Shown here: positions 84 to 3,264 of the stretch, one piece after another | Layout of the letters: each line of letters starts with the position of its first letter | Position numbering within the stretch: position 1 is the first letter of the stretch | Program-made: the position numbers and the translations under genes | Virus record (IMG/VR): IMGVR_UViG_2531839178_000018 | DNA length: 3,264 nucleotides | Reading direction: 5' to 3' (one strand) | Source of the DNA: a virus | Taxonomy: Duplodnaviria > Heunggongvirae > Uroviricota > Caudoviricetes | The notes under the pieces: generated by a model | Told to the model about the DNA's origin: nothing | Database searches by the model: none | The model's input: the letters and a program-made list of their open reading frames with translations, nothing else

Positions 84-884
84 CTATTCCGCGCAGCTAT
101 TTAGTTTTGTATAATTCCGGCGGATGGTTATAGTCCTCGCTTTAAGGTCTATATCTTCCCAGGCCAGTGATACCAGCTCCCCGTGACGAATACCCGTGTA
201 TACAGCGATAATCCACAGGTTTTTTGTTTGTTGATGACGGCAAGCCTCAATAAAACGAATAAATTCGTCACGGGTGAGGGGATCTGGTTCTATCTTGGAC
301 TTTTTTAATGGTGTCAGACCGTTAAATGGATTTCCTGATGTATAACCATTATCTGTTGCAAATTGAAACATTCCAGCTATGGTTGTCATATAGTAGTTTA
401 CTGTGACCACTGAGCGTCCTTTTATGGAAGAAATTTTTCCGTTAGAAAGCTTTTGATAACCGGTCAACAGATCTCTCCTTACGAAAAGCAAATCCTCTTT
501 TGTTACAGATGAAACCAGTCTTTTTTCACCTAACATTGGCAACATGTTTTTAATTACTGACTGGTAACGGTTAAGTGCATTTGCACAAATCTCTATTTTC
601 TTCAGTTCAAGCCATCTTTCCGAAAGTGCTTTAATGGTTATCTCTCTTTTCCCCAGACCAAAGTGTTTCAGGTTAGGGGACTCAGGGAACTGTGCTGCAT
701 AGTCGAAACTCCCCATTCTGATTGCAAAACAAACGGAAGTGCGGAGGTCACCTGCGATTTTCCGGTTTTTGGCGGTGTCAGGAACACCGAGGTTTTCTCT
801 GACACGTTTGCCGTTATAGTGAAACCATATGCGGAGTGATCCGCCATGATTTTCAACGCCTGTTGGGTATGATGTATTACTCAT
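84..884 (-). pseudogene. Phage tyrosine integrase, Rac/IntR-like; only the N-terminal 266 codons are intact, ending at tandem in-frame TAG-TAG (81-86); catalytic C-terminal region absent
   Basis: Translation (MSNTSYPTGVENHGGSLRIWFHYNGKRVRENLG...FDYAAQFPESP...) resembles from memory the N-terminal arm-binding and core-binding regions of IntR-type integrases. Box I-like motif TGIRHGELVSLAWEDID is present near the C-terminus with the conserved Arg, but the ORF stops about 20 codons later, before any box II (HxxR) or catalytic Tyr. ATG at 884 is preceded by GGGAGG (complement of 891-896). Full-length relatives are about 400 aa (recalled). Confidence 0.72.
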
Positions 885-917
885 TAAACCTCCCAGACGT
901 CCAGGAGCATTAACAGG

Positions 918-1172
918 TTAACCGGAACTTGCATTTTTAACACCTGGTTGTTTCTGATTTTCGATCCAGCGCATAATTTCCTCTATGTTGTATACGCATT
1001 CACTGTTGCTCTTCGGAATTCCATCGACAGCGTAATGTCGATATTCTTTCCCCTGTAGCCATGATTTTTTCCTGGCTCGCTCAATGGTGCCTGGTTTTAG
1101 CCCTGTCGAAGCAATGAGGGTGCTTTCTGTACACCATTTACTTGGTGTTATTTGATAGATGATTGTCTGCAT
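918..1172 (-). CDS. Excisionase-like small DNA-binding protein (Xis; putative excisionase, DUF1233-like)
   Basis: 84-aa ORF immediately upstream of int on the same strand, the canonical xis-int arrangement. Sequence has the pattern of small winged-helix excisionases (ITPSKWCTESTLIASTGLKPGTIERARKK...GKEYRHYAVDG...IEEIMRWIE). ATG at 1172 is preceded by GAGG with a 5-nt spacer, and that GAGG overlaps the TGA stop of the upstream ORF. Family assignment is by recall, not search. Confidence 0.6.
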   Translation of the reverse strand: MQTIIYQITPSKWCTESTLIASTGLKPGTIERARKKSWLQGKEYRHYAVDGIPKSNSECVYNIEEIMRWIENQKQPGVKNASSG

Positions 1173-1179
1173 GTCAACC

Positions 1180-1326
1180 TCATAAAACTTTCAGCCCACG
1201 GCAGTGGCACCACACCTCAAACATTCGTTTCACAACTTCACGGCAGTAGAAACCGTCAACATCTCGCGTCAGGTCATAACGATTGCCGTAACGCTGGCGT
1301 ACCCATAGCTCAAACGCTTTATTCAT
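1180..1326 (-). CDS. Small hypothetical protein, 48 aa, Cys/His-containing (not in the supplied ORF track)
   Basis: Hand translation of the minus strand: MNKAFELWVRQRYGNRYDLTRDVDGFYCREVVKRMFEVWCHCRGLKVL. ATG at 1326-1324 lies 3 nt after the TAG of the 80-aa ORF and is preceded by AAGGAAG with a ~6-nt spacer. Its TGA (1182-1180) sits inside the SD of xis. It exactly fills the apparent 157-bp gap between the 80-aa ORF and xis. Confidence 0.45.
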   Translation of the reverse strand: MNKAFELWVRQRYGNRYDLTRDVDGFYCREVVKRMFEVWCHCRGLKVL

Positions 1327-1329
1327 TCG

Positions 1330-1572
1330 CTACTTCCTTTTCATGGCTCGTAATTTTTTCAAATGAGCTTCCTGCTCTGTTTCTACCAGAATTTGTCGGT
1401 ATTCCTGGTGATCGATCCGTTCAAACAGTTCATTAAAATCGTTTATTTTTACCGACTGTGTTCGCCCATCCATTCTTCTGTACAACACAGAGTTGTTTAT
1501 GCAGCGAATAATTTTTATCGGGTAGCCAGCACTATCGGTGTATATCTGACCACTTTGAATCAGAGCGAACAT
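1330..1572 (-). CDS. Hypothetical phage protein, 80 aa (possibly DUF4222-like; tentative)
   Basis: ORF in the tiled minus-strand operon. No alternative in-frame start upstream before a stop. GGGGA lies about 7 nt upstream of the ATG. The motif GYPIKIIRCINNSVLYRRMDGRTQSVKINDFNELFERI resembles small phage DUF4222-type proteins from memory only. Confidence 0.55.
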   Translation of the reverse strand: MFALIQSGQIYTDSAGYPIKIIRCINNSVLYRRMDGRTQSVKINDFNELFERIDHQEYRQILVETEQEAHLKKLRAMKRK

Positions 1573-1576
1573 TCCT

Positions 1577-1663
1577 TTATCCCCAGCGGAAAAGTGAATA
1601 CAGAATAAATGCCACCGCTATTGCAACTCCTACTGCGGTGAATGCTTCAGGCCAATTCATCAT
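1577..1663 (-). CDS. Small hydrophobic peptide, 28 aa, predicted single transmembrane helix (not in the supplied ORF track)
   Basis: Hand translation: MMNWPEAFTAVGVAIAVAFILYSLFRWG. ATG at 1663-1661 overlaps the TGA stop of the 209-aa ORF (ATGA overlap); a second ATG follows immediately. GGAGG (complement of 1668-1672) lies 4-7 nt upstream. Its TAA (1579-1577) is 4 nt before the ATG of the 80-aa ORF. It fills the apparent gap 1573-1659. Confidence 0.42.
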   Translation of the reverse strand: MMNWPEAFTAVGVAIAVAFILYSLFRWG

Positions 1664-2289
1664 TTCACCTCCACGCCGATCCCGGCAATAACACAATCCC
1701 GTTTGATAGCTTCTTTCACCCAGCGTTTATAGGTTTCCGGATGGAATTTTGCGCTTTTTCCAGTACCGCTCCAGAATGCCTTTGATGTGATATCGGGCAG
1801 GGTGATGGTCAGACCTTTCTTCCTGATGTCTCCAGAACTTTTGCAAAAAGTTAATGCGACGCGTAGTTCTTTAACGCACGCATAGTTTTCTGCTTTCTCT
1901 GGATCGCCGGTACGGTGTTCAGCTTCTTGTCTGCACCATTTGATGACTTTCTCAGCGGCTGCGTGGAGACGCTGACGTTGCCGGTCGTATGTGTCGACCA
2001 GCCCAAATGCATGATCCTTTGCTTTGCTTAATTCAGCGACGAGGCATTCGGAATCAATCAGATTATTTTCCGCAGCGGACAGTGCATGTTTCAGTCGCTC
2101 GATTTCTTGAGCCATGTAGTAACCGGTTTTGCTCCAGGTATCTACATCATCGCCACTCATATCCGGTTCCATCGTCGCCATCAGAACGGCGTCGTGATAG
2201 TCCAAGCTACCGCAGGTGATTGCAACGGCGTAGGAGTCACTATTTTCTCGTTTATGGATAAGTACAACTGGGTTTTTGATCTTGCTCAT
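1660..2289 (-). CDS. Hypothetical prophage accessory protein, 209 aa; function not assignable from sequence
   Basis: Longest intact ORF in the window. ATG at 2289 is preceded by GAGGTG with a ~5-nt spacer. Acidic N-terminal region (MEPDMSGDDVDTW), a central region that looks helical/charged (EIERLKHALSAAENNL...RQRQRLHAAAEKVIKWCRQEAEH), and a basic C-terminus (KFHPETYKRWVKEAIKR). No catalytic motif recognised. Confidence 0.75.
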   Translation of the reverse strand: MSKIKNPVVLIHKRENSDSYAVAITCGSLDYHDAVLMATMEPDMSGDDVDTWSKTGYYMAQEIERLKHALSAAENNLIDSECLVAELSKAKDHAFGLVDTYDRQRQRLHAAAEKVIKWCRQEAEHRTGDPEKAENYACVKELRVALTFCKSSGDIRKKGLTITLPDITSKAFWSGTGKSAKFHPETYKRWVKEAIKRDCVIAGIGVEVK

Positions 2290-2297
2290 CCCGCACC

Positions 2298-2393
2298 TCA
2301 GTAATTCATTAAAAATTTATATTCAATCAGCGCACCGAAAACGACGGACGCCAGCAGCAGACCAAACAGCATGGACAGGAGGAATGACTTCAT
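2298..2393 (-). CDS. Small hydrophobic peptide, 31 aa, predicted single transmembrane helix (not in the supplied ORF track)
   Basis: Hand translation: MKSFLLSMLFGLLLASVVFGALIEYKFLMNY. ATG at 2393-2391 overlaps the TGA stop of the 74-aa ORF (ATGA overlap). GGGAGG (complement of 2401-2406) lies 7 nt upstream. Its TGA (2300-2298) is embedded in the SD of the 209-aa ORF. Confidence 0.45.
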   Translation of the reverse strand: MKSFLLSMLFGLLLASVVFGALIEYKFLMNY

Positions 2394-2614
2394 CGCTTTG
2401 CCTCCCGCTGTACGATTTTGTAGGCGCGCAGGATGTCGAGTGTTTTTCCTGACAACGATGACTTAACCCAGAAAAAGCCGCTGCGGTTTTCATAGATCCC
2501 CTGTACATTAAACAGTACCGCATCAACAACGCGGTTATGCTTTTGCAATGTCAGGCGGGAACTGGTGATCACGATGTTCGCTACGGCGCCATAGTCCTGG
2601 TATTGGATTTTCAT
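2390..2614 (-). CDS. Hypothetical phage protein, 74 aa
   Basis: ORF in the tiled operon. ATG at 2614 directly abuts the TAA of the upstream fragment (TAAATG), with GGGGAA about 8 nt upstream. No recognisable domain. Confidence 0.55.
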   Translation of the reverse strand: MKIQYQDYGAVANIVITSSRLTLQKHNRVVDAVLFNVQGIYENRSGFFWVKSSLSGKTLDILRAYKIVQREAKR

Positions 2615-2823
2615 TTACATGTTCCCCATAACGGTATCGCTCATGTCGTTAACCATGCTCTGCCAGATTTCTTTGCCGCTTTGCGTCAGCTCGTTTCCAC
2701 GAACGCATTTGCTTAACAGCTGAATACCAACGGCTTCCCATTGGGGGTAATTTTCTTTGATAGCCTTCAGAGCATAACCATCGATTAAGTCCCTGATGCC
2801 TTTAACCCCACCGATGATGTTTA
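2615..2823 (-). pseudogene. 5'-truncated ORF remnant (about 68 native codons) whose N-terminal coding region is replaced by the IS911 left end
   Basis: The track ORF 2615-2896 uses a TTG inside IS911 as its start, and its first 24 codons are encoded by the IS911 inverted repeat/leader (2824-2896). The native part begins at the IS junction and has no internal start until the last few codons. So the listed ORF is chimeric and the original gene was interrupted by the insertion. Confidence 0.5.
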
Positions 2824-2859
2824 TGAAGTGGCACACTGAATTTGGCCACCTGAACAGAG
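2824..2859 (+). repeat. IS911 left terminal inverted repeat (IRL, about 36 bp)
   Basis: Begins with the TGAAGTGG terminus characteristic of IS911/IS3-family ends. The 36-bp length is from recalled literature; the partner IRR is not in the window. Confidence 0.65.
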
Positions 2860-2895
2860 GTGATATGCTCACCTCAGAACAACACAGGTGCTCCA

Positions 2896-3158
2896 ATGAA
2901 AAAAAGAAATTTTAGCGCAGAGTTTAAACGCGAATCCGCTCAACTGGTTGTTGACCAGAAATACACGGTGGCAGATGCCGCCAAAGCTATGGATGTTGGC
3001 CTTTCCACAATGACAAGATGGGTCAAACAACTGCGTGATGAGCGTCAGGGCAAAACACCAAAAGCCTCTCCGATAACACCAGAACAAATCGAAATACGTA
3101 AGCTGAGGAAAAAGCTACAACGCATTGAAATGGAGAATGAAATATTAAAAAAGGCTAC
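2896..3158 (+). CDS. insN: IS911 OrfA (transposase N-terminal/regulatory protein), about 87 of ~100 codons; 3' end disrupted by IS30, reading frame continues into IS30 sequence
   Basis: ATG at 2896 preceded by AGGTG with a 5-nt spacer. Helix-turn-helix region and leucine-zipper-like heptads ([20 protein letters not shown]) typical of IS3-family OrfA. The track's start at 2860 is a GTG extension with no SD. After ...ILKKAT the translation ([18 protein letters not shown]...) is IS30-derived, not IS911. Confidence 0.8.
3147..3153 (+). promoter_or_regulatory. IS911 programmed -1 ribosomal frameshift heptamer A-AAA-AAG
   Basis: AAAAAAG at 3147-3153 in the orfA frame, at the position where IS911 OrfAB is produced by -1 frameshifting (established for IS911). 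The downstream stimulatory region and orfB have been removed by the IS30 insertion 5 bp downstream. Confidence 0.7.
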
Positions 3159-3184
3159 TGTAGATTCAATTGGTCAACGCAACA
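3159..3184 (+). repeat. IS30 left terminal inverted repeat (about 26 bp)
   Basis: Starts at the abrupt break in IS911 homology. The 26-bp length is from recalled literature. Confidence 0.65.
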
Positions 3185-3220
3185 GTTATGTGAAAACATG
3201 GGGTCGCGGAGGTTTTTTGA

Positions 3221-3264
3221 ATGAGACGAACATTTACAGCAGAGGAAAAAGCCTCTGTTTTTGA
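3221..3264 (+). CDS. insI: IS30 transposase, first 14 codons (3' end beyond the window)
   Basis: ATG at 3221 preceded by GGAGG (3207-3211) with a 9-nt spacer. Translation [14 protein letters not shown] runs to the window end without a stop. Confidence 0.8.

Follow-up and report, generated by a model that had tools for sequence, protein, structure and literature searches.

A conserved 31-codon gene for a predicted small membrane protein in enterobacterial prophages

We identified a 31-codon gene on the minus strand (positions 2298..2393, stop codon included) of a 3,264-nucleotide stretch of Caudoviricetes DNA (IMG/VR record IMGVR_UViG_2531839178_000018, hereafter the window). Judged by comparison with its homologues, this open reading frame (ORF) is a genuine protein-coding gene, because its frame and peptide persist from genus to genus and from one gene context to another and because substitutions in it are concentrated at synonymous sites. 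Its product (MKSFLLSMLFGLLLASVVFGALIEYKFLMNY) would be a small membrane protein. The reading that we prefer, and to which we give a probability of about 0.6, is that a small single-pass inner-membrane protein is made by coupled translation in an early-left operon and binds a larger membrane protein via its conserved tail. A preliminary description, made from the letters of the window, had already proposed a real, unannotated membrane peptide at this place; it was right in this conclusion, while its reasoning was partly wrong. The family to which the peptide belongs (28-34 residues; temperate phages and prophages of Enterobacteriaceae) is new and so far unnamed, whereas small membrane proteins as a kind are already known.

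Genomic setting and translation signals

The genes of the window between positions 84 and 2896 all lie on the minus strand and follow each other, in the direction of transcription, in the order 93 aa, 74 aa, 31 aa, 209 aa, 28 aa, DUF4222, 48 aa, xis, and int. The small gene is preceded by a 93-aa ORF that matches phrog_37628 (2615-2896, 5' end cut) and by a 74-aa gene (2390..2614, phrog_1001), and it is followed by a 209-aa gene (1660..2289, phrog_492), a second small ORF of 28 codons (1577-1663), a DUF4222 gene (1330-1572), a 48-aa gene (1180-1326), an excisionase gene (xis, DUF1233, 918-1172), and a tyrosine integrase gene (int, 84-884). When the small ORF and the 28-codon ORF are counted, the operon runs from 2896 to 918 almost without non-coding sequence. 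The 28-codon ORF is also found in Stx phages. An IS911 element, 100% identical to the IS911 copy of phage Sf6, occupies the plus strand from position 2824 to the window end. We assign the window to a decaying lambdoid prophage within a Shigella chromosome, because positions 102-3264 have 99.9% identity with CP026824.1, positions 102-2822 have 99.96% identity with CP026836.1, and public records list the exact 74-aa and 209-aa proteins under Shigella names. This prophage is a remnant, in which IS911 interrupts the operon 430 nt upstream of the small ORF and integrase homology ends at position 102 (266-aa ORF here vs 428 aa in relatives); the intact small gene may therefore be silent here. Sequence searches with the 103-aa and 209-aa neighbour proteins gave no PDB match, and the functions of neighbouring genes bear weakly on the peptide because the operon is mosaic.

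Intact relatives carry, on one strand, a cI-like S24 repressor, an HTH protein, about eight small genes, and then the 74-aa, 31-aa, 209-aa, DUF4222, xis, and int genes. In all, about ten small genes separate the repressor from the 74-aa gene, among them those for a ParE-like protein and ORF6N and, in some cases, one for an SPFH/Band_7 protein. By its location between the immunity region and xis-int, the small gene occupies the equivalent of the lambda early-left or 'exo-xis' region. The genes of that region are conserved and affect lysogenisation and induction, although most of them have no assigned function (PMC4195576). A simple scan detected no sigma-70-like site on the minus strand of the window and, around 2298-2393, nothing promoter-like on the opposite strand either; a non-canonical RNA could escape such a scan. 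The small ORF is embedded within the operon, flanked by neither a terminator nor a promoter-like site, from which we infer that its expression depends on that of the operon and follows induction or infection.

The start codon of the small ORF (ATG, 2393-2391) is separated by a 7-nt spacer (CAAAGCG) from a Shine-Dalgarno (SD) sequence, GGGAGG (2401..2406, minus strand), that lies within the final codons of the 74-aa gene. Three bases are common to this ATG and the TGA of the 74-aa gene, which together form an ATGA stop/start overlap (2390..2393, minus strand) of the kind expected for translational coupling. Because the ATG overlaps the upstream stop, the small gene has space for neither a separate promoter nor a separate 5' leader. 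At the other end, the stop codon (TGA, 2300-2298) overlaps an SD-like sequence for the 209-aa gene, GAGGTG (2294..2299, minus strand), situated 4 nt ahead of the ATG of that gene (2289). The sequence downstream of the peptide stop is TGAGGTGCGGGATG, so that the minus strand reads, in order across both junctions, GGGAGG CAAAGCG ATGAAG...AATTAC TGAGGTGCGGG ATGAGC..., and several subfamilies have TGAGGT(G/A) after the small ORF. All sequence statements of the preliminary description (the ORF, the SD, the spacer, the ATGA, and the stop within the next SD) were correct when we rechecked the letters, and the tight coupling within a prophage operon that it implied agrees with the ATGA overlap, the SDs, and the near-gapless run of genes on a single strand. 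Taken by itself, a 31-codon ORF is unremarkable in the window, which contains 55 ORFs of at least 20 aa.

How much the SD and the ATGA say about the small ORF was judged from 86 loci with homologues of the 74-aa gene (six from one genome per species and 80 from IMG/VR). The C-terminus of the 74-aa protein reads ...(R)EA(K/T)R before the stop in 86/86 loci, encoded as ...GAGG...CG(A/G)TGA, and the next gene, whatever its kind, begins at the overlapped ATG or GTG in all 86 as well. The genes found in this place are the small ORF, 209-aa-type, 70-aa, 102-aa, 48-aa, and 300-aa genes, and several others. Since the SD and the ATGA are kept whatever follows, they are part of the 3' end of the 74-aa gene, and they are therefore not independent evidence of selection on the small ORF. 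On this comparison, the 3' end of the 74-aa gene is a general-purpose coupling junction, at which anything placed would be set up for translation. The earlier argument that so much translational signal would hardly arise by chance thus stands only in its first part: the signals are present, but most of them come with the 3' end of the 74-aa gene and would serve any gene placed behind it.

Cassette, distribution, and coding selection

The small ORF forms a single-gene cassette of 104 nt (2290..2393, minus strand) with a direct repeat, GATGA, at 2389-2393 and 2285-2289, and in cassette-less relatives the 74-aa gene is joined straight to the 209-aa-type gene at a single GATGA. These bounds derive from comparison of the window with loci without the ORF (L134, L136, L176) and with the ORF (L045, L058). 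An intact small ORF is present in 44 of the 86 loci of the 74-aa gene, always starting at the ATGA, and one further copy is truncated. Scanning IMG/VR for back-translated GALIEYKF gave 93 matches, 90 of which lie inside family ORFs of 28-34 codons with a common architecture, M-K-x-F...hydrophobic...GALIEYKF(L)xx(F/Y). The family ORFs are preceded by at least six unrelated genes (phrog_1001, ParE-like (PF24732/phrog_1525), phrog_1886, phrog_24826, phrog_1515, and the gene of a 146-aa protein) and followed by at least eight different genes. The 4-nt start/stop overlap recurs in five of the six upstream contexts, phrog_1001 included, with an 11-nt gap in the remaining one, and in each of the five non-phrog_1001 contexts a separate purine-rich, SD-like run precedes the ATG by 3-8 nt. 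These runs are independent evidence for putative translation signals and could not have been obtained from the window alone. Frame and start codon, which the preliminary description had suggested checking in homologues, are both kept in Escherichia/Shigella, Citrobacter, and Trabulsiella, so that the check brought no refutation.

Two explanations that tie the peptide to one neighbour were rejected. The small ORF is absent beside about half of the 74-aa genes and is carried by five other upstream genes, which argues against an obligate partner of the 74-aa protein; the peptide is kept across at least eight downstream families, which argues against a leader or regulatory upstream ORF for the downstream gene. 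Some copies have decayed, namely L121, truncated by a 7-nt duplication, L082 and L213, in which a deletion has left the beginning of the 74-aa gene joined to the small ORF's tail, and L257, a remnant without start codon. The small gene is thus dispensable, since decayed copies exist.

The exact peptide of the window is called on 854 contigs, and the hosts seen for the family are Escherichia/Shigella, Citrobacter, and Trabulsiella, including at least 18 of 5426 complete E. coli genomes. A phmmer search against 1.84 billion cluster representatives recovered five family clusters (about five at 50% identity) and one spurious repeat protein. By these counts of matching sequences, the family is narrow and not abundant. 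The peptide had no match in Pfam, PHROG, NCBIfam, PADLOC, PDB, or Rfam, and the best match to a curated model, Prli42 (E = 0.27), was far below the cut-off of that model. A tblastn search against phages aligned residues 17-31 only, in phi467 alone, and a full-text literature search for GALIEYKF found no paper. That the gene is unannotated, as had been stated, applies to RefSeq, where PGAP calls it in none of the copies examined and leaves a gap of about 100 nt, but not to phage phi467 (CUW01254.1), the temperate phage isolate LMessi (XNS37525.1), and a few GenBank genomes, which annotate it as 'hypothetical protein'.

Substitutions were analysed at loci found via the neighbouring 74-aa gene only, and the motif was thus not selected for. 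Pooled over pairs of related, recombining sequences, which are not independent observations, codons 2-30 of the small ORF have a pS of 0.377 and a pN of 0.072 (pN/pS 0.19). The values are 0.337 and 0.085 (pN/pS 0.25) for codons 2-19 and 0.485 and 0.015 (pN/pS 0.03) for codons 20-28 (GALIEYKFL), and the 74-aa gene at the same loci has a pS of 0.462 and a pN of 0.101 (pN/pS 0.22). The peptide, not the nucleotides, is conserved, because pS is 0.38-0.49 vs a pN of 0.015-0.07, and by this measure the peptide is under purifying selection. Across the hydrophobic half, variation is far lower at codon position 2 than at positions 1 and 3, as would be expected if hydrophobic residues were selected for. 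Every copy has stops in both of the other sense frames. One antisense frame remains open in each of them, with a pN/pS of 0.40 vs 0.18 for the small-ORF frame; with this ratio, no SD, and an overlap with two genes, the antisense 58-aa ORF (2276-2452, plus strand) was rejected as a candidate. An RNA element was also rejected, as the fold is no better than that of shuffled sequence (z = 0.19) and Rfam gave no match. Together, the comparative conservation across contexts and the pN/pS of 0.19 bear out the earlier suggestion of a genuine gene that standard annotation omits.

Predicted peptide, conserved motif, and phrog_36586

The predicted product consists of a Met-Lys N-terminus, a hydrophobic helix of about 20 residues, and an 8-residue tail. 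Its best 19-residue Kyte-Doolittle window scores 2.54 (runner-up ORF 2.28), and no other of the 24 ATG-started ORFs (≥25 aa) in the six frames of the window is as hydrophobic as the small ORF. AlphaFold2 modelled a single continuous helix over residues 2-30 with a mean pLDDT of 96.8, and a transmembrane helix is predicted, by Kyte-Doolittle and AlphaFold2, for codons 3-23 (SFLLSMLFGLLLASVVFGALI; 2325..2387, minus strand). The single hydrophobic helix read earlier from the sequence is thus supported by both methods. At 31 aa, the peptide is within the size of small single-pass membrane proteins (≤50 aa), and it has one hydrophobic segment of membrane-spanning length. Its charges, K2 on one side and E24/K26, with or without R/K30, on the other, do not settle the topology. 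The positive-inside rule weakly favours an N-in/C-out orientation, which would probably place IEYKF at the periplasmic interface.

At its C-terminal end, the helix carries a near-invariant motif, G-A-L-I-E-Y-K-F-L (codons 20-28; 2310..2336, minus strand). The family comprises 45-56 distinct peptides, and M1, G20, L22, E24, Y25, K26, and F27 are invariant in the set of 56, part of which was chosen by motif scan; since that part was found with a pattern that fixes the motif, its invariance rests mainly on the neighbour-anchored samples. K2, F4, S7, L13, L14, I23, and L28 are nearly invariant, and position 16 is A, S, or T in 55/56 peptides and forms a small-xxx-small motif with G20. Many hydrophobic exchanges are tolerated in the N-terminal half of the helix. 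Outside the motif-selected set, the exceptions to the motif are A21T in one Escherichia lineage and Y25S in locus L251.

The small ORF is often linked to phrog_36586, a soluble protein of 94-107 aa with no Pfam or PDB match. It lies upstream of all 61 full-length phrog_36586 homologues in IMG/VR (directly upstream in 54 loci, directly upstream as the Y25S variant of L251 in one and as a deletion remnant in another, and one gene away in five), and this linkage is seen in five different upstream contexts. Viewed from the small ORF, a phrog_36586 gene is located within 1.5 kb downstream in 63 of 98 family members (directly in 56) and is absent in 35, the window included. A co-occurrence test over the 86 loci, in which all ORFs were clustered (Fisher), returned only lineage-linked neighbours and overlapping spurious ORFs. 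The two genes could form a module in which the small protein serves, for example, as membrane anchor or regulator of phrog_36586, and the lineage of the window would then retain an orphaned half. The linkage speaks for such a module, but the 35 members without phrog_36586 keep the peptide intact and constrained, and the linkage may as well reflect a shared preferred slot beside xis-int; we regard the module as unlikely.

Putative role and relation to known systems

Small membrane proteins act by binding a larger membrane protein (reviewed in PMC12648545), and the small gene may be read in the same way. Upon transcription of the operon, the small ORF would be translated by coupling to the preceding gene and its product would insert in the inner membrane as a single-pass protein. 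The helix might then pack against a larger host or phage membrane protein and alter its activity, with binding mediated by the small-xxx-small motif A16-x3-G20 and the IEYKF tail. The outcome could be host takeover by blocking an envelope process, e.g. division or the entry of competing DNA; host takeover is the likely outcome because the product would be made early after induction or infection. The near-invariant nine-residue motif argues for a specific partner and not for generic membrane damage, because the constraint falls on nine residues covering all faces of the helix end, while for the rest of the helix hydrophobicity is enough. A wider proposal is tentative and to our minds doubtful: the GALIEYKF peptides may represent a new class of phage host-takeover or exclusion factor, helix ligands whose juxtamembrane motif locks one conserved enterobacterial inner-membrane machine, in most lineages together with phrog_36586. 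Such a machine would be, for example, a component of the divisome, FtsH/HflKC, or a channel for phage DNA entry such as ManYZ or PtsG.

None of our results singles out the toxin-like, division-inhibiting, or exclusion role that the preliminary description had suggested. In size and hydrophobicity the peptide matches the type I toxins Ibs, Ldr, TisB, and ShoB. It could accordingly be imagined as a membrane-damaging toxin, type I toxin-like or holin-like, that oligomerises, depolarises or permeabilises the inner membrane and has a part in prophage maintenance, abortive infection, or the timing of lysis. Helices can self-associate through small-xxx-small motifs, but the strong constraint on the nine-residue motif is unexpected for a generic pore-former, and the gene adjoins xis-int, not the late region, and has no lysis-cassette neighbours. 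Prophage-borne type I toxins have precedent (PMC12648545), whereas the architecture of a type I system is absent here: the searches described above found no promoter of its own, no promoter on the opposite strand, no structured 5' leader (fold z = 0.19), and no Rfam antitoxin RNA, and the small ORF is predicted to be co-translated with many other operon genes. A gene with a ParE-like toxin domain belongs to the same operon and is directly upstream in one subfamily, but each neighbour that might act as an 'antidote' is present beside some copies and absent beside others. A toxin thus seems an improbable account of the family.

The chances are slimmer still for a superinfection-exclusion factor that is expressed in the lysogen and blocks DNA entry of other phages at the inner membrane. 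The cassette-like, moron-like distribution would fit an accessory fitness gene, and prophage-encoded small or membrane proteins provide precedents, such as P22 SieA (PMC10883804) and DicB, which acts on ManYZ (PMC6832061). The small ORF, however, lacks a separate promoter and sits far inside an operon that, if it behaves like the one of lambda pL, would be repressed in lysogens, and it showed no PADLOC match and no homology to known Sie proteins. A functionless peptide, acting as a ribosome spacer or relay between genes or conserved at the DNA or RNA level, would be compatible with the coupling signals on both flanks, the absence from half of the related operons without obvious replacement, and the antisense frame that is open in all copies, but is already largely refuted by the peptide-level conservation in pS and pN, the retention of the same peptide with at least six upstream and at least eight downstream partners, an RNA fold no better than shuffled, and the higher pN/pS, missing SD, and two overlapped genes of the antisense frame.

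Bacterial and phage annotation systematically misses small membrane proteins, as seen in the gap of about 100 nt that PGAP leaves in every RefSeq copy examined. The small ORF is a cleanly delimited and evolutionarily validated case of this kind, a 104-nt cassette moving between prophage operons at GATGA junctions, and its near-invariant nine-residue motif gives an obvious starting point for mutagenesis and for identifying a partner. If a host target were found for the single-pass membrane protein that we propose, it would add a membrane-embedded function to the host-manipulating functions of the early-left region (Kil, cIII, DicB, Ral) and might also explain the frequent linkage to phrog_36586. 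The family and the 28-codon ORF should enter small-protein models for annotation pipelines. The finding will not surprise specialists, yet it provides a clean, testable case.

Among known systems, type I toxins (Hok, Ldr, Ibs, TisB, ShoB; prophage BsrG, TxpA, YonT) are, like the product of the small ORF, hydrophobic peptides some 30 aa long that a mobile element encodes. They differ from the small ORF in having an antisense RNA, their own promoter, and a leader, whereas the small ORF is coupled in a long operon and its peptide has a strongly conserved specific motif. Caulobacter SidA is a 29-aa transmembrane division inhibitor. By analogy with SidA, DicB, and lambda Kil, the peptide may be a small product of an early or SOS-type prophage operon that plausibly targets proteins of division or inner-membrane transport, although DicB and Kil are not transmembrane and none of the three has sequence similarity to it. 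DicB, a prophage protein of 62 aa, acts on MinC/FtsZ and ManYZ (PMC6832061).

The exo-xis genes of lambda and Phi24B (orf60a, orf61, orf63, orf73, ea22, ea8.5; PMC4195576, PMC10789677) are likewise small, non-essential, mosaic genes of unknown function in an operon that ends at xis-int, for which expression is expected after induction or infection. The peptide has no homology to any of them (no family match), these papers on the region mention no membrane ORF, and the operons that carry the small ORF, unlike the lambda region, are without exo/bet/gam. The small inner-membrane proteins of up to 50 aa (in E. coli AcrZ, MgtS, MgrB, KdpF, CydX, YohP; PMC12648545) differ in being chromosomal, whereas the small ORF is phage-borne and cassette-like and matches no NCBIfam or Pfam small-protein model. 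In size, in its single predicted helix, and in its omission from annotation, the peptide nevertheless resembles them, and by analogy with AcrZ and MgtS it would likely act by helix-helix binding to a larger membrane protein.

Junctions, partners and alleles of the small gene

GATGA flanks the cassette of the 31-codon membrane-peptide gene (small ORF, 2298–2393, minus strand) on either side (2389–2393 and 2285–2289, minus strand). The 3' end of its upstream neighbour, the 74-aa gene (phrog_1001, 2390–2614, minus strand), reads ...GAGG...CGATGA and is a universal junction among related prophage loci (L004–L009 and L106–L182), where the overlapped ATG is the start of at least seven different genes that vary by prophage. 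Taken together, the universal junction and the cassette with GATGA at both ends suggest that the mosaic operons of these prophages are reshuffled at gene-boundary microhomology.

Among the IMG/VR loci L193–L251, the small ORF is tightly linked to phrog_36586, a 94–107-aa protein of unknown function. All full-length phrog_36586 copies found in IMG/VR have the small ORF directly or one gene upstream, and the linkage spans five upstream contexts; the lineage of the window is devoid of the phrog_36586 gene. Also frequent in the operon (L185–L192, L001, L010) is a gene with a ParE-like toxin domain (PF24732), for which no obvious antitoxin is annotated in the same operons. In one subfamily the small ORF lies directly downstream of this ParE-like gene with an ATGA overlap, and the operon of some relatives additionally encodes an SPFH/Band_7 membrane-scaffold protein.

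Several related loci carry naturally mutated versions of the small gene. A deletion in L082/L213 joins MKIQHQDYGAVA, with which the 74-aa gene begins, to AVVFGALIEYKFLIGF, and a 7-nt duplication in L121 introduces a stop after residue 24 of the small peptide. The small gene of L257 is a decayed remnant from which the start codon is absent, and L251 carries the motif variant Y25S.

Remnant state of the prophage

Likeness of the window to all related prophages ends at position 102, and the 3' part of the tyrosine integrase gene (int; 84–884, minus strand) has thus been replaced by unrelated sequence; its ORF encodes 266 aa as compared to 428 aa in relatives. At the other end of the window, IS911 is inserted at 2824 (2824–3264, plus strand) and has replaced the first ~24 codons of the phrog_37628 gene (2615–2896, minus strand), the 93-aa ORF of which matches the phrog_37628 profile only from residue 25. 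The replaced 3' part of int and IS911 mark the prophage as a remnant. From ~3150 of the window, the reading frame of IS911 orfA diverges from the IS911 OrfA sequence, and the DNA there resembles an IS30 end. The near-identical locus L188 contains an HTH_38 transposase fragment at the place matching ~3150; the arrangement would then be one of nested IS elements.

Unannotated reading frames around the 209-aa gene

The gene downstream of the small ORF, the 209-aa gene (phrog_492, 1660–2289, minus strand), is intact in the related prophage L001 (RefSeq NZ_CP100500.1, 4557–5186), where PGAP gives only a 159-nt pseudogene ('partial, missing N-terminus') and thereby leaves ~570 nt and the small ORF unannotated. 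L002 (RefSeq NZ_CP028735.1) is annotated in the same way, with a partial pseudogene.

A second small hydrophobic ORF, likewise unannotated, is located at 1577–1663 (minus strand) and encodes the 28-aa peptide MMNWPEAFTAVGVAIAVAFILYSLFRWG (Kyte-Doolittle 2.28), which has no sequence kinship to the 31-aa family. The SD GGAGGTG precedes this ORF, which starts at an ATG that overlaps the terminal TGA of the 209-aa gene; the ATG of the DUF4222 gene follows 4 nt past the stop of the ORF. In Stx1 phage BP-4795, an identical MMNWPEAFTAVGVAIAVAFILYSLFRWG peptide fills the 87-nt unannotated gap between ORF4 (DUF4222) and ORF5 (DUF551), and the window DNA at 1600–1672 shares 98.6% identity with VT1-Sakai, YYZ-2008, and many Stx1a phages.
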